NCBI GenBank assembly: GCA_022777205.1
Contig: JALFGP010000037.1
Location: 2,819 to 66,818, forward strand
Direction of reading: 5' to 3'
DNA length: 64,000 bases
From: Rikenellaceae bacterium
GTDB lineage: Bacteria; Bacteroidota; Bacteroidia; Bacteroidales; UBA932
A program made the translations under genes and the position numbers. This document shows, one piece after another, positions 1-56,444 of this stretch. Positions within the stretch are counted from its first letter, which is position 1. Each line of letters opens with the position of its first letter. The notes beneath the pieces were generated by a model. That model was given only the letters and a program-made list of their open reading frames with translations, did no database searches and was not told the origin of the DNA.

Positions 1-639
1 CACGAAATAAGGCTTGCCTGCAGTGACACTCATCCCTGCAATTGTTTTGTCTTGAGTCGCTGCCGGAATTTTAGCCGAAAGGGAATGGAAATCAACCGTA
101 CAGTTATATGTAGAGACAAGTGCGAGAGTGATGCTGTTTGGTAATTCACGCAACTCTATTTTTTTGGATTCATCAATAATATAGTTTGCCTCAGAATCGT
201 CAGCCACTCTTTTTGCTGTAACTCCGGTGCATTCAAGCCAAGGCTGCCCGTTCTGTACTAATTCCTTTTCCGCTGTGGTCTTGTTTGCACAGTTGAAATA
301 AAAATCGAATGTTTCGCTTTCTCTGCCGAGTGAAGTCTTGAAAACTCCTTTAAAGATATTCGGTTCAGTCGTTGTGTTAGTCATAACTGTTACTGCATCG
401 GCACTGCTGCGTGCCTTTACCACAATCTCTTCAGTGCCTTCGAATTGGTAAGTGTCACCGTTGAGAATCACTTTGGTTTCGGGCAATTGGAATACGATGC
501 CTTCACCTTTCGGTTCTACTGTCTCTTGCTGATTTTCTCCCTCCGGAAGTTCTGAAATCACTGTTTCGTTTTCTGGAGCCATCTTGGAGCAGGCTGCCAA
601 TGCCAAAACTGCAAATGCTGCTGATATATGTTTTTTCAT
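1..639 (-). CDS. Fimbrillin/type V pilin-like lipoprotein, 3' end runs off the window
   Basis: Not in the ORF track because it has no stop. Translated by hand from ATG at 639: MKKHISAAFAVLALAACSKMAPENE...PETKVILNGDTYQFEGTEEIVV..., open to base 1. Has an SPII lipobox (LAAC) and a degenerate TK-x-l-x-G..(W/F)..(D/E)-I-V segment like Mfa1-type N-termini. Confidence 0.6.
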   Translation of the reverse strand, partial: MKKHISAAFAVLALAACSKMAPENETVISELPEGENQQETVEPKGEGIVFQLPETKVILNGDTYQFEGTEEIVVKARSSADAVTVMTNTTTEPNIFKGVFKTSLGRESETFDFYFNCANKTTAEKELVQNGQPWLECTGVTAKRVADDSEANYIIDESKKIELRELPNSITLALVSTYNCTVDFHSLSAKIPAATQDKTIAGMSVTAGKPYFV

Positions 640-675
640 TGCTGTTTCATTTTGATAGGTTACACTACATTTGAA

Positions 676-816
676 TCATTGTTCTCCTTCGAGATAACTT
701 TCGTACTTGGAGTTAGAGGAGAAATTAACATAGGCACTTACGGTGGAGCCGCAAAATCCAATCTCAACGCCCGCCGCGAACTCTGCGATGAGCGGAGTAA
801 AATAAATTTTCTTCAT
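676..816 (-). CDS. 46-aa small ORF with a Y-x-T-P-x9-E-x-G-F-x-x-S motif, upstream of the fimbrillin-like gene
   Basis: MKKIYFTPLIAEFAAGVEIGFCGSTVSAYVNFSSNSKYESYLEGEQ*. Lies just downstream of a consensus promoter. The motif recurs with identical spacing at 54443-54592. Confidence 0.7.
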   Translation of the reverse strand: MKKIYFTPLIAEFAAGVEIGFCGSTVSAYVNFSSNSKYESYLEGEQ

Positions 817-847: not shown

Positions 848-879
848 CAAAGATAGGGCAATTTTTCGTTATGTGCAAA
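848..879 (-). promoter_or_regulatory. Bacteroidetes sigma-A promoter for the small ORF and pilin-like gene
   Basis: Minus-strand TTTG (876-879), a 20-nt spacer, then TATCTTTG (848-855), matching the -33/-7 consensus. Confidence 0.75.
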
Positions 880-43946: not shown

Positions 43947-45680
43947 ATGAGAAATATATATAAAGTATTGATAGGGACATCACTTTCGGCAATCCTGTCT
44001 TCTTGCAGTTTCTTCGATGTCACCCCTCAGGTCATCTGTTCAGAGACTTTTTACAAGACCGAGGCCGAGGTCAAGTACGGGCTTGCCGGTATATACGGGG
44101 CTATGAGCAAGGAGAGTTTCTACGGGAACTACTATTCCCTGATGTATTCAAACATAGACGACCTCTGCTATTTCAACAGGGAAATAGGCACGAATTACCT
44201 CCAGTATTGCCGTCACGACGCAAGCAATCAGTTTATCTATGACATCTGGACGGCTATGTATCAGGGCGTCAACAATGCCAATTCATTTATGGAGGCCGTG
44301 GAGCATTCAGAATTCGACCCGGACGGGAAATATTACAATGAAGCCCGTTTCCTCAGGGCCTATTATTACTTCCTCATAGCTCAGTCCTTCGGTGACGTTC
44401 CTTTGAGGACTTCTGCTGTCAAAACTCCGGAAGAGGTGTATTGCAAAGCCACTCCGCAGTTCGATGTGCTCACCTGGGCCGAGGCTGAAATGGAGGCCTG
44501 TCTTGAACTCGCCGAAGAGGATATCGCAGTCCAGCCTTCCCGAGTGACCAAAACCACAATGCAGGGCATACTTGCGAGAGTGAATCTCTTCCTTGCCGGA
44601 GCGAGTGTGCAGGGAGGGGACAAGACCAAGTTCCTCACCAATGCGAGGGACTTTGCCAATGAAGTGATTCTCAGCACCAAACACGACCTGAACCAGGACT
44701 ACTCACAGGTGTTCATAAATATGTTCCAAAACAAATATGACACAGAATATCACGAGTCCATGTGGGAGGTCGAGTTCTATGGAGACCAGTCCAGTGCCGA
44801 ATTCTGGTCAAACGGACGTATAGGCGACCTGCTCGGACTCCAGAGCGGCAACAGCACATCCACGGAATTCGCCAAATTCAAATGCAATTATGCCCACGGA
44901 CAGTACAATGGTTCCCTGAAGCTCTGGGACCTGTATTGGAAGACCGACAGAACAGATTCTGAAAACCAGCTGGATGTCATCACTGACAAACGTCAGGACT
45001 GGAACCTGCCTCCATACAATTACGCCGGTCACGCCAAGCAGCCGCCTTACGGTACTACTGGTTCGGGCACTTGTGTGGCAGGAATTGACAAGACTCCTTA
45101 TGTCTATGGCAAGGACGCGACCACCAAAAAGGACTTGACGACTACCACGACTCCTACTACTGCCCAGGCCATACGCAACTGCGGTAAGTTCAGAAGGGAA
45201 GTGCAGTATGAGGGCCAAAAGACGGCAAAGCGTCTGTACAACTGCATCAACTATCCTATACTCCGCTATTCAGACGTGCTCCTGATGTATGCCGAGGCAA
45301 GCAATGAACTTTCCGGTCCGACTCAGGAGGCCTATGATGCCGTGCTGAAGGTCAGGACCAGAGCCGGAATCTCGACCAAGGCTTACAGTGAGTACGACCA
45401 GGCTTCTTTCCGCGAACTTGTGCGCAATGAGAGGGGGCGCGAGCTCTGTTTCGAAGGCTTACGCCGTTTCGACCTCATACGCTGGGGCATCTACGTGGAG
45501 GCAATGCACAGTTATTCCGAACAGACGGCTGACAGCAGATGGTCCCAGAGTGCTGCTCTTGCAGCCAGGGCTCTCGATATGGGCGGTAACATCCAAAAAC
45601 GGCACGAACTTCTGCCTATTCCTTCCATTGAACTCGGATCCAATAAGGAACTTGTTCAGAACTCTTTGTGGGCTAATTAA
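43947..45680 (+). CDS. susD: SusD/RagB surface glycan-binding lipoprotein
   Basis: Lipobox LSSC, EARFLRAYYYF..FGDVP, RYSDVLLMYAEA and ERGRELCFEG.RRFDLIRWG motifs. Confidence 0.96.
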   Translation: MRNIYKVLIGTSLSAILSSCSFFDVTPQVICSETFYKTEAEVKYGLAGIYGAMSKESFYGNYYSLMYSNIDDLCYFNREIGTNYLQYCRHDASNQFIYDIWTAMYQGVNNANSFMEAVEHSEFDPDGKYYNEARFLRAYYYFLIAQSFGDVPLRTSAVKTPEEVYCKATPQFDVLTWAEAEMEACLELAEEDIAVQPSRVTKTTMQGILARVNLFLAGASVQGGDKTKFLTNARDFANEVILSTKHDLNQDYSQVFINMFQNKYDTEYHESMWEVEFYGDQSSAEFWSNGRIGDLLGLQSGNSTSTEFAKFKCNYAHGQYNGSLKLWDLYWKTDRTDSENQLDVITDKRQDWNLPPYNYAGHAKQPPYGTTGSGTCVAGIDKTPYVYGKDATTKKDLTTTTTPTTAQAIRNCGKFRREVQYEGQKTAKRLYNCINYPILRYSDVLLMYAEASNELSGPTQEAYDAVLKVRTRAGISTKAYSEYDQASFRELVRNERGRELCFEGLRRFDLIRWGIYVEAMHSYSEQTADSRWSQSAALAARALDMGGNIQKRHELLPIPSIELGSNKELVQNSLWAN

Positions 45681-51297: not shown

Positions 51298-54200
51298 ATG
51301 AAGCGACTTTCCGCATTTGCAATGATGCTGGCAGTCTGTGCAATATCCTACGCACAGACTGTCAGCGTTGATTACGGGGAGCAAACCGGGGTGATTTCAT
51401 TCGAAAAGATGCCCGGAACGATTTCCTGCAAATCTTCCTCTTTGAACATATCCGATGCCCATTCAAAACTCGGTGACCACTCTTTGGAATGGACCCCGAA
51501 GAAGTCCGGGGCATCGTGGCGTATGGATGTGCCGGTCAAGTTCCTTGCGGTTAATCCCGACCCTGACGACACTGCAATTTCTTCATTCGTGTTCTGGGTG
51601 TATTCCCCTGAACCTGCGGACGGCAGCCTGCATTTCGCGTTCCTCAAGGACGGCAGGGAATGTTGCTGGTTCGACTATTCTCTCGGATTTACAGGGTGGA
51701 GAGGAGCGTGGCTGGGCTTCGACAGGGATATGCAGGGCAAGCCGGAAGAGGGAATGGACTCATTCATAGTCACATACAACGGTAAGTCCCGCAAGCCCCA
51801 TTTCTGGTTCGACGGAGTGATTCCGGCCTCTTTCCAGGATGTGCGCCACCATACGGCTGACTGGCAGGCTCCGTACATCAATGCGGCCACGACCAATTTC
51901 TGGCTCATTCTCAACAAATATTGGGAGAATCCATCAGACATACCCGTGGAGGCGGAACTTGCTGCGGGGCAAAAGGAGGATTTCGCTCTTCTGGAATCCC
52001 GCTTCAAGACTCTCGTAGAGGAAGGCGCGAAGAAATGGGATATTGACAGAATCAGGGACTATTATGACTCCTGGCACATATCCTTCAATGCTGACGGCAC
52101 AATTAGGGGCAAGTCTGTCTGGTTTGTGCGTTATTCCGAGACCTATCTCGACCTCGGGCTGAATGCCAAGAAGGACTTCAAGGAAAACGGGCAGCTGCTT
52201 CAGGACCTGAACGATGCTATGCTGGCAATAGCTATGAGCTGGGAGGATGAGAAGAATCCCGCCATCAAAAAGGAGATAGGAGAGATTTACCTGAACCTCA
52301 CGAGACATCTTATAGACCAGGGATTCCAGGCAGGCAGCGGTATGGGCACCCTGCACCACCTGGGCTACAGTATGCGCAATTTCTACAATGCTCCTGTCAT
52401 AGTCAAGCCTCTTCTCCGTGAAGCCGGTCTCCTTAACACCGTGCAGCAGGCTATGGAATGGTTCTCTGGTTTCGGTGAGGTACGGACCGCGCCGGTGACA
52501 TTGGGAATGGACGTGGATGCCTTCAATACTATGCTTATGGGCCGTTTCGCTTCAGTGGTGATGATGGAAGACACTCCTGCAAAAGCTGCTGGCCTCAAGG
52601 CTCTTTCCCGCTGGGTGGACAACGGGTACAAATATACAGAGGGGCTGAACCCGAGTTTCAAGCGTGACGGTACTGTGGTCCATCACCGCAAATGTTATCC
52701 GGCTTACGCAACAGGCGGTTTCAAGGGTTCCGTGCCTGCAATATGGATGCTTGCCGGGACGCAGTTCGCAATATCCCGTGAAAGCCACGAAATCCAAAAA
52801 CGGGCTTTGCTGGAAATGCGCTTCTGGAGCAATGTCAAGTCTTTCCCGCTGGCTATGTCCGGAAGACATCCCGACGGCAAGCAGACTCTTCTTCAGGGGC
52901 AGTATTCCCTGCTTGCAGATGCCGGCTCTCCTGATGGGACGCAGAAAATAGACAAGGAACTTGCCGAGGCATATCTGCGCATAAGGGGAAATGCTTCAGA
53001 CAAATGGACGAAGAAATTCAATGAAGCAGGCTATGTGGCTGAAAAGGCTCCTGTGGGCGGACACTTTTATCCTTACGACTGCTCGCTTTCCTACCGTCAG
53101 GACGAATGGCTGGTGACTTTTGCCGGACACAGCCGTTATATCTGGGCTGCAGAACATTACAGGGGCGAAAATATGTATGGTCGTTACCTGGCTCACGGCA
53201 GTATGCAGATACTCGGATTTCCGACAGACTATCCCGACAGTTTCGGCAGCGGTTATCGCCAGGAAGGTTGGGACTGGACACATATCCCCGGAACGACTGC
53301 GGCAGCTATTCCTATTGAGGAAATGAAGGCGGATATAATCAATGCCGACGAATTTTCCGGTTTTGAGGAAATGCTGCTTTCTGATGAATATTTCGCCGGT
53401 GGAGTAACTTTGGGCAAGGAGGCTGCAGCGTATTCCTTCATTCTCCACGAACACGACAAATACAATCCGTCCCTGCGTGCCCGCAAATCCTGGTTTGCTT
53501 TCGGGAACCGTATAGTATGCGTGGGCTCAGGTATATGCAATTCCAAGGGGCCTGCTCACACCACCTTGTTCCAGAACAGCCTGGAGAGTGCCGAGGGGAC
53601 TTGTTCCTCTTTCTCCGGGGAATGCGAACTGACTGACCGTCTGGGCAATTTCTACTATATCCCGGATGCGGAGGTGAAATTTGAGAAAGCCCTCCAGCAT
53701 TCTTTCCACGAAGAGACCTGCGCCCCGACAAGCGGGTGTTTCGAGAAAGCATACATTGACCACGGGGAGAATTGTACAGGCGGTGGATATGTCTATATGG
53801 TCGTGCCCGGACCTTCATCTGAAGCCGACAAGGAATTGTTGAAATCTTCTTGTGAGGTGTTGCGCAAGGATAATTCTGTGCATCTTGTGAAAGATAGTCA
53901 GAGCGGGCTTGTGGGCGCATCCGTGTTTGAGGCCGGTACGGTGGACAATGTCATCTTGCAGGCAAGCCAGTCGGTTATGATTTATGCTCTTGAAGGAGAT
54001 AGACTTTCCATCGCCGTGGCGAATCCTGACCTGGCAATCTATGCCGGAGTGTCAGATGAAGTCTTTGACGAAAAGGGCAAGCGGGTCGAAAGGAGCATTT
54101 ACGGACGCGACTGGGTGAATAATCCAGCTGCGGAAACATCTGTGACTTTCGTCCTGAACGGTGAGTGGAAACTGGAGGCCTATATCTGTGGAGGTGGACT

Positions 54201-54312
54201 TGAATGTTACGAAAGCTTCACTCCGACTGTGACCGTGTCCGACGGCAAGACCACGGTGATTGTGAAGACCAAAGAGTGCCGCACTGAGGAGCTTAGATTT
54301 AGAAAAATTTAA
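51298..54312 (+). CDS. PL8 chondroitin sulfate ABC lyase (second paralogue)
   Basis: Signal peptide YA|Q, GWRGAW, HHLGYSMR, VHHRKCYPAY, MSGRHP, GWDWTHIPG and KSWFAFGNRIV motifs. Confidence 0.9.
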   Translation: MKRLSAFAMMLAVCAISYAQTVSVDYGEQTGVISFEKMPGTISCKSSSLNISDAHSKLGDHSLEWTPKKSGASWRMDVPVKFLAVNPDPDDTAISSFVFWVYSPEPADGSLHFAFLKDGRECCWFDYSLGFTGWRGAWLGFDRDMQGKPEEGMDSFIVTYNGKSRKPHFWFDGVIPASFQDVRHHTADWQAPYINAATTNFWLILNKYWENPSDIPVEAELAAGQKEDFALLESRFKTLVEEGAKKWDIDRIRDYYDSWHISFNADGTIRGKSVWFVRYSETYLDLGLNAKKDFKENGQLLQDLNDAMLAIAMSWEDEKNPAIKKEIGEIYLNLTRHLIDQGFQAGSGMGTLHHLGYSMRNFYNAPVIVKPLLREAGLLNTVQQAMEWFSGFGEVRTAPVTLGMDVDAFNTMLMGRFASVVMMEDTPAKAAGLKALSRWVDNGYKYTEGLNPSFKRDGTVVHHRKCYPAYATGGFKGSVPAIWMLAGTQFAISRESHEIQKRALLEMRFWSNVKSFPLAMSGRHPDGKQTLLQGQYSLLADAGSPDGTQKIDKELAEAYLRIRGNASDKWTKKFNEAGYVAEKAPVGGHFYPYDCSLSYRQDEWLVTFAGHSRYIWAAEHYRGENMYGRYLAHGSMQILGFPTDYPDSFGSGYRQEGWDWTHIPGTTAAAIPIEEMKADIINADEFSGFEEMLLSDEYFAGGVTLGKEAAAYSFILHEHDKYNPSLRARKSWFAFGNRIVCVGSGICNSKGPAHTTLFQNSLESAEGTCSSFSGECELTDRLGNFYYIPDAEVKFEKALQHSFHEETCAPTSGCFEKAYIDHGENCTGGGYVYMVVPGPSSEADKELLKSSCEVLRKDNSVHLVKDSQSGLVGASVFEAGTVDNVILQASQSVMIYALEGDRLSIAVANPDLAIYAGVSDEVFDEKGKRVERSIYGRDWVNNPAAETSVTFVLNGEWKLEAYICGGGLECYESFTPTVTVSDGKTTVIVKTKECRTEELRFRKI

Positions 54313-54442
54313 CTTTTACACTATCTTTGCGTCAAAATGTTCTGGCTTTCAGATATAAGTAATTTTTTGAGGATTACTAAACTGGAACAGGAAAGACTGA
54401 CTTGACTGAAACAATAACAATCAATAAACAAGTTTTTTTATT

Positions 54443-54592
54443 ATGTACAAACACACTAATTCACTGGGGGGGGCATATGTAACCCCTGTACTTAAGACGG
54501 TTTCGGTTCAGACCCAGGTCGGGTTTGCTGCGTCGCCGGCTATGAATGCCAGCTTTATCGAGTTAAAGGAACAGGATGATTATGAATGGTAA
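54443..54592 (+). CDS. 49-aa small ORF with a Y-x-T-P-x9-Q-x-G-F-x-x-S motif and an internal G8 tract, upstream of a fimbrillin gene
   Basis: Below the ORF-track length cutoff. MYKHTNSLGGAYVTPVLKTVSVQTQVGFAASPAMNASFIELKEQDDYEW*. The stop lies 13 nt before the pilin ATG. Confidence 0.7.
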   Translation: MYKHTNSLGGAYVTPVLKTVSVQTQVGFAASPAMNASFIELKEQDDYEW

Positions 54593-54605: not shown

Positions 54606-56444
54606 ATGAAAAAGACAAACATACTTTTTTCAGCAGCGTTTGCTGTTTTTGTGACTGTTTCCTGCTCAAAGGATATCATTGATAACAAAGATACTGTTCA
54701 GCAACCTAATCTGGTTCCTATGACATTTTCCGTTGCGGAGAGCGTTGAAGAAACTGCACCTGATTCGAAAACCACTTTGGTCATTGTTGATAACAAGAAG
54801 ACTATCAATTGGGTGGCAAATGACAAAGTTGGTGTTTTTGGCGTTGTTGGCGTACCAACGATTAACACTACTGTTAATACGAATAATCAAATCTTTAAAG
54901 CAGGATCAAGCGGTGCTTCGACTACTTTGAGCGGATATGTAGTGGATGGAGATAATAGATTTTATGCATTATATCCATATCAGAATGGTGTGTCTCTTAC
55001 TTTCGAGGGCAATGAGAACTCCGCTACAGCACTTTTAAATAATGTAACTATACCTGTTCAACAAAAAGCAGTAGCTGGTAGTTTTGACCCTGATGCCTAT
55101 CTATTCGCATCACTATCTACTAATAGAACGAGTTTTACTTTCTATACTCCTTGTTCATTAGTTGGTTTTCAATTGAATGATCCGGATGTCTCTAAAATCA
55201 AATCCATCAGATTGTATGGAAATAATGCTGGTGATGTCCTCGCTTCTGAAAAAGGTCAAATTAAAGTATATAGTGCAGCTTCTATACACGTGGCTACTGA
55301 CGGGAAATCCAATTATGTAGAACTTGTTCCTGACGGTTCGGATAAATTTCAAAACTTTGTTCAATATTATTTCGTGGTTCTAAGATCGAAGCTAACTAAC
55401 GGAATCACTATTTATGTTGAATACGAAGATGGAACTGTAAAGCAAAAATCCAGCAATAATGTATTTGATGTCAGTGCAAATAATTGTGTTAAAAGTTTAG
55501 GTGCTTTGGAGGGTACATCCTTCAGTAAGGTGGCATATAGCAAGGCATTTGAACTTGGATACAATGTGATTGTTGGTGGCAAAGTCTATAGTAAGAACAA
55601 TACTACCACCTACTCTTCTTTGAATGCCACTACGGAAACTGTTAACTTGAATTCAGCTGCTTATAAGGCAGGATTATATTTCCTGAAAGGCGCTAACTTT
55701 ACTCTAAGTGGTTCTTGGAATGTTGCCAATGATGTAGTTTTGATTGGTGATACCGATGGAGTGAAATTTAATGGTGATACGAGATATAATATATATCATA
55801 ATTCTAAATCACTGAGGATTAAAAATATTGATATTACCATTCCTAATACAAATTATTGTTTATTGAATAATAACACCTCTACGGATGCTACGGAATTGGT
55901 GTTTGATGGATGTAAGATTTCAACAGCATGTCCATTGTTGTATTCATTAAAGAAGAAAGGTGACACAGTTGAAAATACCTGTGCTGTTAAGACCTTGATA
56001 CTTAAAGACTGTGATATAACTCTTACAGGTTCGGCGAATCATATTGTCAATTTGGGTTATGCTAAAGCCTCAAAAATTGAGACTGTCAATATTTCCGGCT
56101 GTACAATTACTCCGAGTGTTGCTGCAAGGGTCATTTCTTTACCTGCTTGGGTGGAAGGATCGACAACAGCACCATCATTTGTTTTCAATAATAATGTTTT
56201 GAAAAGTGTTATACCATCCGGTCAGTCCATTATTTCTTTCTCTGGAAAGATGAATAGTATTGAAGTGAAGAATAACTCAGGTAGTATTGATGTTTCAAAA
56301 GTGGCAGATCTTTCTAAAACTCAGTATTTTATAAACTATTCTTCTTTGGTCGAGCCAATTGTTTACGATAATAACGAATTTAGTATTAATAAAGGCCAAT
56401 TCTCCTCTACATTCTATTTATATCCCGGGAAGACGATGGAATAA
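54606..56444 (+). CDS. Fimbrillin (Mfa1-like) lipoprotein with a C-terminal beta-helix-like domain, AT-rich
   Basis: Lipobox TVSC, MTF....SKT.L...W..NDKVGVF, FYALYPY, IP..Q.A..GSFDP and YYFVV motifs. Start MKKTNI at 54606. Confidence 0.8.
   Translation: MKKTNILFSAAFAVFVTVSCSKDIIDNKDTVQQPNLVPMTFSVAESVEETAPDSKTTLVIVDNKKTINWVANDKVGVFGVVGVPTINTTVNTNNQIFKAGSSGASTTLSGYVVDGDNRFYALYPYQNGVSLTFEGNENSATALLNNVTIPVQQKAVAGSFDPDAYLFASLSTNRTSFTFYTPCSLVGFQLNDPDVSKIKSIRLYGNNAGDVLASEKGQIKVYSAASIHVATDGKSNYVELVPDGSDKFQNFVQYYFVVLRSKLTNGITIYVEYEDGTVKQKSSNNVFDVSANNCVKSLGALEGTSFSKVAYSKAFELGYNVIVGGKVYSKNNTTTYSSLNATTETVNLNSAAYKAGLYFLKGANFTLSGSWNVANDVVLIGDTDGVKFNGDTRYNIYHNSKSLRIKNIDITIPNTNYCLLNNNTSTDATELVFDGCKISTACPLLYSLKKKGDTVENTCAVKTLILKDCDITLTGSANHIVNLGYAKASKIETVNISGCTITPSVAARVISLPAWVEGSTTAPSFVFNNNVLKSVIPSGQSIISFSGKMNSIEVKNNSGSIDVSKVADLSKTQYFINYSSLVEPIVYDNNEFSINKGQFSSTFYLYPGKTME

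Follow-up and report, generated by a model that had tools for sequence, protein, structure and literature searches.

A dispersed small-peptide family beside lipoprotein genes of uncultured Bacteroidales: probable precursors of a RiPP-like pathway resembling that of the linear polyphosphorylated peptides

The window analysed here, the whole stretch of 64,000 nucleotides from a Rikenellaceae bacterium (contig C112, positions 2819-66818, in an assembly of 2.39 Mb), carries on its minus strand at 676-816 a small open reading frame (ORF), called copy 1, that stands directly ahead of a lipoprotein gene. The small ORF is a real gene of a large unnamed family and, by analogy with the linear polyphosphorylated peptides (LPPs), it probably encodes the precursor peptide of a similar pathway for peptides that are ribosomally synthesised and modified after translation (RiPPs). 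This reading draws on the family and its anatomy, the adjacency to lipoprotein genes, a set of enzyme genes in the same genome in which the ATP-binding cassette (ABC) exporter is a candidate, the co-occurrence of peptide and kinase across genomes, and the clustering of the genes in relatives. A sequence-only reading of the window had pointed to YxxP motifs as recognition elements of RiPP leaders and had listed a processed peptide among its options, adding that no function was known. The lead was right, the option is favoured by the enzyme set and the co-occurrence, and there is now a specific hypothesis in which the peptide would be the substrate of a set made up of recognition protein, kinase, peptidase and exporter. 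The copy 1 locus comprises the following features.

848-855, minus strand: perfect -7 promoter box of the Bacteroidetes type, TATCTTTG, 39 nt 5' of the copy 1 ATG (TAnnTTTG scan).
676-816, minus strand: small ORF copy 1, 46 codons and amino acids (aa), ATG at 814-816 and TGA at 676-678 (ORF listing and translation); predicted precursor peptide.
745-804, minus strand: leader motif of copy 1, Y5-F-T-P8-L-I ... E18-I-G20-F21-C-G-S24 (regular-expression match).
679-744, minus strand: variable tail of copy 1, TVSAYVNFSSNSKYESYLEGEQ; predicted core, to be released and exported.
640-675, minus strand: spacer of 36 nt between copy 1 and the lipoprotein gene, in frame with both ORFs, with a single TGA as the sole stop.
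1-639, minus strand: 5' part of the lipoprotein gene after copy 1, continuing on the contig (C112:1901-3457); 518 aa in full, lipobox LAAC followed by SK.

The product of copy 1, MKKIYFTPLIAEFAAGVEIGFCGSTVSAYVNFSSNSKYESYLEGEQ, contains within its leader a recognition-type motif YxxPx[hydrophobic] together with near-invariant E, G, F and S residues. In six frames, the translated window contains exactly two matches to the strict pattern Y.TP.{9}[EQ].GF..S, one at 745-804 on the minus and one at 54476-54535 on the plus strand, against a mean of 0.0 in 300 shuffles; the motif peptide reported before from 676-816 and, with the same spacing, from a second copy 54 kb away is thereby recovered. The remainder of the two peptides, which had been called unrelated, is indeed only about 25% identical outside the motif, though each tail is acidic and has aromatic residues close to its end. 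Regular-expression searches followed by profile scans of the assembly found at least 10 family ORFs, located on contigs C112 (two), C65, C96, C50, C111, C82, C72, C21 and C27, and with the family profile A3 copy 1 reaches 36.3 bits (E 1.7e-8). When 1.84 billion representative proteins were searched with a profile of 12 sequences, 279 clusters were matched at E<=1e-3, nearly all 33-60 aa long and aligned from the N-terminus, which bears out the earlier proposal of a conserved micropeptide family. No family was matched by copy 1 or by ten canonical members in scans of Pfam and NCBIfam.

The family consensus reads M-K-K-x-x-Y-E-[ST]-P-x-V-E-V-I-E-V-x-V-E-[QK]-G-F-A-[AT]-S and is followed by a variable tail. 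Across 139 aligned members Y and P never vary and conservation is at least 90% at E18, G20, F21 and S24 (numbered as in copy 1), and the segment after YxxP has the character of an amphipathic beta-strand. Tail length has a median of 16 aa; G, E and D are abundant, the mean net charge is -3.7, and 76% of the tails carry an aromatic residue among the last three positions, W being the commonest last residue. Orthologues of copy 1 (P0001-P0004) are 83-96% identical to it and lie in the same synteny gmk-nadD-ORF-lipoprotein, an order kept at the loci L075-L079 wherever the contigs extend far enough, and the ORF is intact in all orthologues examined.

Candidate maturation genes were located in the same genome as follows.

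C4:89894-90160, minus strand: PqqD protein, a discrete recognition protein (RiPP recognition element, RRE), 88 aa; Pfam PqqD at 57.3 bits against a cut-off of 23.4.
C4:89002-89889, directly after the PqqD gene: P-loop kinase, 295 aa, with GESGTGKST.
C121:~45087-45590, minus strand: small peptidase homologue with KGYSMVPF, LHRV and GDGN intact.
C52:19006-19728: NTP_transf_5 gene, the only one in the genome (119 bits), in a polysaccharide-synthesis locus.

By sequence the kinase matches only the P-loop region of ATP-PEPCK, and its AlphaFold2 model, with a predicted local distance difference test score (pLDDT) of 93.4, gave 51 Foldseek matches at E<=0.001. Because the best 50 of these 51 matches are all ATP-PEPCK or HprK/P, the protein is assigned to the PEPCK/HprK superfamily of kinases, and it is termed HprK-like as judged from the modelled fold and the P-loop region. 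For the peptidase, a profile built from 6 homologues found SEC11C (E 1.8e-5) and SEC11A (5.9e-5) as the best solved relatives, in an alignment pairing the GxSMxP serine, the H-R histidine and GDxN, all three of which are invariant in the profile; no Pfam model matched at E<0.01. On these sequence grounds it is classed as a Ser-His peptidase of the archaeal/ER (Sec11/SipW) type, the class of LppS. Only candidates, on C42 and C70, were found for the ABC exporter.

The same genes stand together in relatives. In genome G167 a single strand carries the family peptide MKRNKKIMKKLYTSPEIEVVEVIEYGFAASEPLGRSKVSQSFEEEEF, the kinase, a 149-aa peptidase, PqqD, NTP_transf_5 (115.5 bits) and an ABC exporter (ABC_tran at 111 bits, with ABC_membrane), and in G121 the genes for kinase, peptidase, PqqD, NTP_transf_5 and ABC come immediately after two peptide-lipoprotein pairs. 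Precursor and enzymes share one cluster in both of these genomes and partly in G162, G183, G229 and G253, and a PqqD protein was present in 7/7 clusters inspected in relatives. Family peptides lie 0.2-10 kb from the kinase gene in G167, G121, G162, G183, G228, G229, G253 and G261. In G031, from the same genus, the genes for PqqD, ABC, kinase and peptidase lie in this order beside pth and an L25 gene, which are also the neighbours of the C121 peptidase gene.

Co-occurrence of peptide and kinase was determined in three genome samples, comprising 151 Bacteroidales across families, 101 genomes of the same family and 201 genomes of the phylum. In the first sample the peptide was found in 8 genomes and strong kinase orthologues (E<=1e-34) in exactly those 8 and in 0/143 of the others, the next-best kinase match being 1.6e-18 (Fisher p = 2e-13, uncorrected for phylogeny). 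Within the family both were present in 41 genomes, the peptide only in 2, the kinase only in 14 and neither in 44, so that 41/43 peptide-positive genomes had the kinase (Fisher p = 8e-14, likewise uncorrected for phylogeny). In the phylum sample the peptide was found in this genome only and the kinase in 4.

The predicted pathway resembles that of the LPPs, RiPPs of Bacillota made by the lppA-K-B-S-D-N genes of Paenibacillus alginolyticus. In their precursors a conserved leader, YxxPxVLxHQxIxFETxxS, is followed by a variable C-terminus; LppB, a discrete PqqD-like recognition protein, binds the YxxP strand; LppK, an HprK-like kinase, polyphosphorylates core Ser3, the last S of the motif; cleavage follows T-1, and the catalytic residues of LppS are S29, H68 and D93. 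An NTP transferase and a pump resembling MsbA also belong to the core set, the gene clusters for LPPs are located in capsule loci, and LPPs and paeninodins were called restricted to Bacillota and of unknown function (Popov et al., Nat Commun 2026, PMC13381572). The family described here has the same plan of an N-terminal leader with YxxPx[V/I/L], then a conserved F and Ser and a variable C-terminus. Its clusters in relatives likewise contain a discrete PqqD, a PEPCK/HprK-fold kinase, an archaeal/ER-type signal peptidase homologue, NTP_transf_5 and an ABC exporter, with no gene of cyclase size inside them according to the ORF lists, a comparison made by size and not by hidden Markov model (HMM). 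The position of the NTP_transf_5 gene in a polysaccharide locus recalls the capsule-locus setting of LPP.

By analogy with LPP, the family leader (MKK..Y-x-[ST]-P-x-hydrophobic strand..E-x-G-F-[AC]-x-S) would be bound through its YxxPx-hydrophobic strand by the stand-alone PqqD-type protein, with Y5..P8-L-I of copy 1 taken up as an added beta-strand. The PEPCK/HprK-fold P-loop kinase would then phosphorylate a residue, for which the near-invariant Ser of GF[AC]xS (S24 in copy 1) is the best candidate; this serine may otherwise lie beside the cleavage site. The Sec11/SipW-type (Ser-His) signal-peptidase homologue would cut off the leader near G-F-[AC]-x-S, where F21 may act as F-3 does in LPP and put S24 at or near the new N-terminus. 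Copy 1 would accordingly be divided into two parts of about 23 residues each, a leader and the core (S)TVSAYVNFSSNSKYESYLEGEQ, with a boundary that is approximate because the motif spacing differs from that of LPP. The short, acidic, aromatic-ending tail would be exported by the ABC transporter, and the NTP_transf_5 enzyme may decorate it further.

Phosphorylated lassos of the paeninodin and pseudomycoidin type, which are made by a precursor A, a B1 recognition protein, a B2 peptidase, a cyclase C, an HprK-like kinase and an NTP transferase, share with the present system a [Y/W]xxP leader for a discrete PqqD and tailoring by an HprK-like kinase and a nucleotidyltransferase, and lasso B1 proteins are the best sequence matches of the recognition protein in the PDB. 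They differ in their leader peptidase, which is replaced here by a signal-peptidase homologue. A lasso-peptide reading was considered and rejected, since the ORF lists of the relatives' clusters hold no gene of cyclase or B2 peptidase size (by size, not HMM). With the signal-peptidase homologue in place of the leader peptidase and no cyclase-sized gene, a linear product is expected. Scattered precursors with one conserved leader and hypervariable cores, away from a single maturation system, are also known from the prochlorosins, whose dispersed multi-copy precursors are served by one enzyme set with ProcM; chemistry and leader differ, however, and the prochlorosin genes are not known to have a lipoprotein gene as partner for each precursor.

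Several observations weigh against the precursor reading. The spacing of the motif deviates from LPP, the distance from Y to F being 16 residues (13 in LPP) and that from Y to S 19 (18 in LPP), and the leader is alike in plan and not in detail, with no HQ and E-x-G-F-A-x-S in place of F-E-T-x-x-S. Copy 1 is itself a divergent family member (GFCGS; acidic strand weak). In a search of the PDB with a profile of 7 recognition proteins, the lasso protein TfuB1 (6jx3) was matched at E 4.7e-4, TbiB1 at 0.045, PbaB1 (9x90) at 0.37 and LppB (9x8z) at 0.82, so that the recognition protein has no special similarity to LppB and is no closer to it than to lasso B1 proteins. The HprK-related kinase models of NCBIfam do not match the kinase. 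In this genome the maturation genes are dispersed (C4, C121, C52, C42) and none adjoins a precursor. The associations across genomes carry the phylogenetic caveat given with them, and they leave 14 kinase-positive genomes without detectable peptide and 2 peptide-positive genomes without kinase; the kinase-only class is probably explained in part by short divergent peptides that escape detection. The loci L076-L078 share an identical peptide, yet the C-termini of their lipoproteins are only 12-28% identical. Further departures from LPP are the host, a member of the Bacteroidales and hence of another phylum than Bacillota, the short tails (median 16 aa against a 45-aa core), and the multiplication of precursors, up to 13 per genome, away from the enzymes, each paired with a surface lipoprotein gene and some with poly-G. 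For the present system the chemistry is predicted.

Selection on copy 1 adds to these points. Compared with close orthologues it shows 5-8 codon differences, mostly in the tail, all of them nonsynonymous and 0 synonymous, and compared with the more distant L079 the ratio of nonsynonymous to synonymous polymorphism (pN/pS) is about 0.6 in the leader and 0.9 in the tail. Between the window and L076 the same ratio is 0.04 for gmk, 0.33 for nadD and 0.76 for the lipoprotein gene. Variable sites are spread over the codon positions as 15, 14 and 15, with no third-position excess. Codon-level evidence for purifying selection on copy 1 is therefore weak. Copy 1 is regarded as a gene because of this family-wide motif conservation, the intact frames and the context, and not because of codon evidence. 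Fast evolution of the tail is typical of RiPP cores and fits relaxed constraint equally well.

In this lineage the family is tightly linked to lipoprotein genes. For 10/10 family ORFs in the genome a lipoprotein gene (about 470-890 aa) follows within 0-90 nt, and the partner lipoproteins of the ten copies are very divergent from one another; the lipoprotein after copy 1 begins MKKHISAAFAVLALAAC followed by SK. The order peptide-then-lipoprotein also occurs for members in related genomes, the lipoprotein gene following directly in at least 9/12 cases in G031, 3/4 in G162 and 0/3 in G167. Lipoprotein pairing is thus a lineage-specific elaboration and not a defining trait of the peptide family, because it is common in the genus and family yet absent in G167. 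Copy 1 is, as had been proposed, the first cistron after a consensus promoter: the box TATCTTTG lies upstream of it, and the scan with TAnnTTTG, a pattern with a background of 0.34 per kb per strand, found no box between small ORF and lipoprotein gene at copy 1 or copy 2. The spacer length of 36 nt is kept in the close orthologues L075-L078 and is different in the more distant L079. At window positions 640-678 on the minus strand copy 1 and the lipoprotein ORF share a frame, with only the TGA stop and a run of 12 sense codons between them. The canonical pair at L021 is likewise in frame, with an 18-nt spacer, while copy 2 (13 nt) and the C82 member (TAATG overlap) are not.

In the lineage of Candidatus Cryptobacteroides and its family the precursor genes are unusually scattered, in about ten copies, each the predicted first cistron of a transcript of small ORF plus lipoprotein. 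With each precursor the first cistron ahead of a lipoprotein gene, peptide and lipoprotein would be made together, and they probably act jointly at the cell surface. A further step, offered tentatively and as rather unlikely, assigns to every lipoprotein the phosphorylated, exported peptide of the gene just ahead of it, for which it would serve as receptor, carrier or display scaffold, giving about ten two-part modules fed by one cytoplasmic maturation system, some of them switched individually by poly-G slippage. Were this so, the RiPP would be a structural or ligand component of the surface and not a diffusible antibiotic or signal, and the part of the lipoprotein bound by the peptide would be the constant N-terminal half, since strains with the same peptide differ by a swap of the C-terminal domain. 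Between these strains the N-terminal ~250 aa of the copy 1 partner are 94-100% identical and the last 120-270 aa 12-28% identical, with the flanking gmk and nadD at 98-99% protein identity. The C-terminal part, of CBM6-like fold, is swapped or hypervariable among L076-L078 and behaves like a cassette-like variable binding domain. Co-diversification of the peptide tail with this domain was considered and rejected, as the peptide is identical across those loci; as judged by sequence, the variable domain evolves independently of the peptide, and the constant N-terminal half, left unchanged together with the peptide, is the candidate for any interaction.

Poly-G tracts are concentrated at members of the family. 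The 2.39-Mb genome has 21 G/C runs of at least 7 bases, 5 of them inside or just before family ORFs:

54466-54473 of the window: G8, in copy 2.
C65:30637-30645: G9.
C21:16177-16184: G8.
C50:36512-36521: G10, which leaves start codon and motif in different frames.
C72:448-461: G14, just upstream of the ORF.

Copy 1 has no such tract. Among relatives L003 has G7 and L007 G8; L080, the copy 2 orthologue from another sample, has G9 at the same place with compensating changes, and in the distant member L081 a G9 occupies the same position, immediately ahead of the Tyr. The flanks of the copy 2 tract gave no match in a metagenome scan. The sequences suggest slipped-strand phase variation of individual peptide-lipoprotein modules, in several copies and not in copy 1.

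These tracts and the gene order also bear on the first of the alternatives, in which the small ORF is a cis-acting upstream cistron that controls the lipoprotein gene by translational coupling, polarity or ribosome stalling, with poly-G slippage switching the operon and the peptide inert in trans. The constant first position of the ORF, its short or overlapping junction with the lipoprotein gene (TAATG in C82, 12-36 nt elsewhere) without a promoter box between, the enrichment of the 5/21 runs, the frame of C50, the G8 and G9 of different strains, and a pN/pS near 1 among close orthologues would all suit such control. An amino-acid motif kept at only about 25% identity is hard to explain without a binding partner, however, and the family co-occurs with the enzymes and clusters in relatives with PqqD, kinase, peptidase and exporter; the members in G167 have no lipoprotein behind them, and one of them heads the enzyme cluster. 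Arrest motifs are usually C-terminal, as in SecM and TnaC, whereas conservation here is N-terminal and the C-terminal tails are hypervariable. Taken as the whole explanation, control in cis appears unlikely, although it is compatible with the precursor reading and the two may coexist.

Still less probable is a part for the micropeptide in type V pilus biogenesis, where it would donate a strand to a fimbrillin-like lipoprotein, chaperone it or cap it, which the sequence-only reading had put forward together with a tie to type V pilin genes. The peptide strictly adjoins lipoprotein genes in this genus and has an amphipathic beta-strand-like segment after YxxP, and the copy 1 partner is, like the type V pilins (FimA/Mfa1, Mfa_like_1), a Bacteroidales surface lipoprotein of beta-sandwich domains; the lipoprotein gene directly downstream and the tight link to lipoprotein genes in the lineage therefore stand, and the pilin identity does not. 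Type V pilins have two transthyretin-like beta-sandwich domains with a donor-strand groove. For the copy 1 partner Pfam gives LPAM_1 only and NCBIfam nothing above 0.038, with no fimbrillin, Mfa or FimA match, and for seven partner lipoproteins the two databases returned no fimbrillin family, only LPAM_1, fn3, DUF5125/5121 and a 50-residue Mfa1 match at the level of the signal peptide. Homologues of the copy 1 partner numbered 175 at E<=1e-3 among 8000 candidates scored, named just 'lipoprotein' or 'hypothetical' and found in Candidatus Cryptobacteroides and in metagenome-assembled genomes of Bacteroidales, and none of 120 such homologues among the matches listed has a precomputed Pfam domain. 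Its AlphaFold2 model (mean pLDDT 80.8), disordered over residues 1-43, shows a series of beta-sandwich domains, of which the C-terminal one resembles CBM6 modules (template modelling score about 0.55, Foldseek against the PDB). The best 50 Foldseek matches of the whole-chain model were integrin-leg, carbohydrate-binding module, glycosidase beta-sandwich and CBM6 proteins, with no FimA, Mfa1 or type V pilin among them, a comparison made by whole chain and not domain by domain, the N-terminal domains having a pLDDT of 56-89. The label 'fimbrillin-like' is thus not supported by sequence families or whole-chain structure, and a remote pilin fold is possible. The peptide has neither signal peptide nor lipobox, and the lipoprotein folds outside the cytoplasm; enzyme co-occurrence and the members of other families, which do not adjoin lipoproteins and one of which heads a maturation cluster, are left unexplained by a role in pilus assembly, which is for these reasons improbable.

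That the ORF is a chance reading frame in a non-coding leader region with a fortuitous motif, as the even spread of variable sites over codon positions and the absence of synonymous changes among close orthologues would allow, is hardly credible given a motif found twice in the window and 0.0 times in shuffles, the 10 copies of the genome, all intact, the 279 clusters of fitting length in the database and an ORF intact in all orthologues.

Set against LPP, the probable novelties of the pathway proposed here, with the peptide as precursor, are the phylum, the detail of the leader, the multiplied and dispersed precursors, the obligate-looking pairing with lipoproteins in the lineage and the phase variation. 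A literature search found no Bacteroidales counterpart of LPP and no peptide-lipoprotein pairing described in what was found. If the reading is true, an LPP-related pathway exists in uncultured gut Bacteroidales with its precursor repertoire much expanded and dispersed, and the lipoprotein linkage would be the first contextual clue to the role of a phosphopeptide, at the cell surface and possibly phase-variable. An annotation is thereby offered for hundreds of unnamed ORFs of 33-60 aa that were missed or left blank by gene callers and family databases.

The second family member of the window is organised as follows.

54322-54329, plus strand: -7 promoter box TATCTTTG, 121 nt 5' of copy 2 (TAnnTTTG scan).
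54443-54592, plus strand: small ORF copy 2, 49 aa, of the same family (34 bits against the family profile), with the G8 tract listed above.
54606-56444, plus strand: lipoprotein gene after copy 2, 612 aa, lipobox VSC followed by SK, no Pfam family.

Copy 2 ends 13 nt before the start of its lipoprotein gene (ATG at 54606), whose product begins MKKTNILFSAAFAVFVTVSC followed by SK. Directly upstream of the pair lies a gene for a 1004-aa polysaccharide lyase of family 8 (51298-54312), in a glycosaminoglycan-utilisation region, and the order of lyase, copy 2 and lipoprotein is the same at L080. At C65:26400-34600 an array was observed of an extracytoplasmic function (ECF) sigma factor, a lipoprotein paralogue, a FecR-like anti-sigma factor, a small ORF, a lipoprotein and a SusC-like protein extended at its N-terminus by an STN-type part; no small ORF precedes the first lipoprotein paralogue (57% identical). 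The NTP_transf_5 gene stands in a locus at C52:12800-22800 with glycosyltransferases, an aminotransferase and a flippase-like gene, and a G8 tract is present there at C52:14301-14308. More poly-G tracts were seen at C115:7603-7610, C100:16703-16709, C3:20656-20663 and C27:10039-10047; these four comprise tracts in the signal-peptide region of SusC-like TonB-dependent receptor genes (two out of frame) and one in an ECF sigma factor gene, a distribution that suggests homopolymer-based switching of several surface systems in the species.

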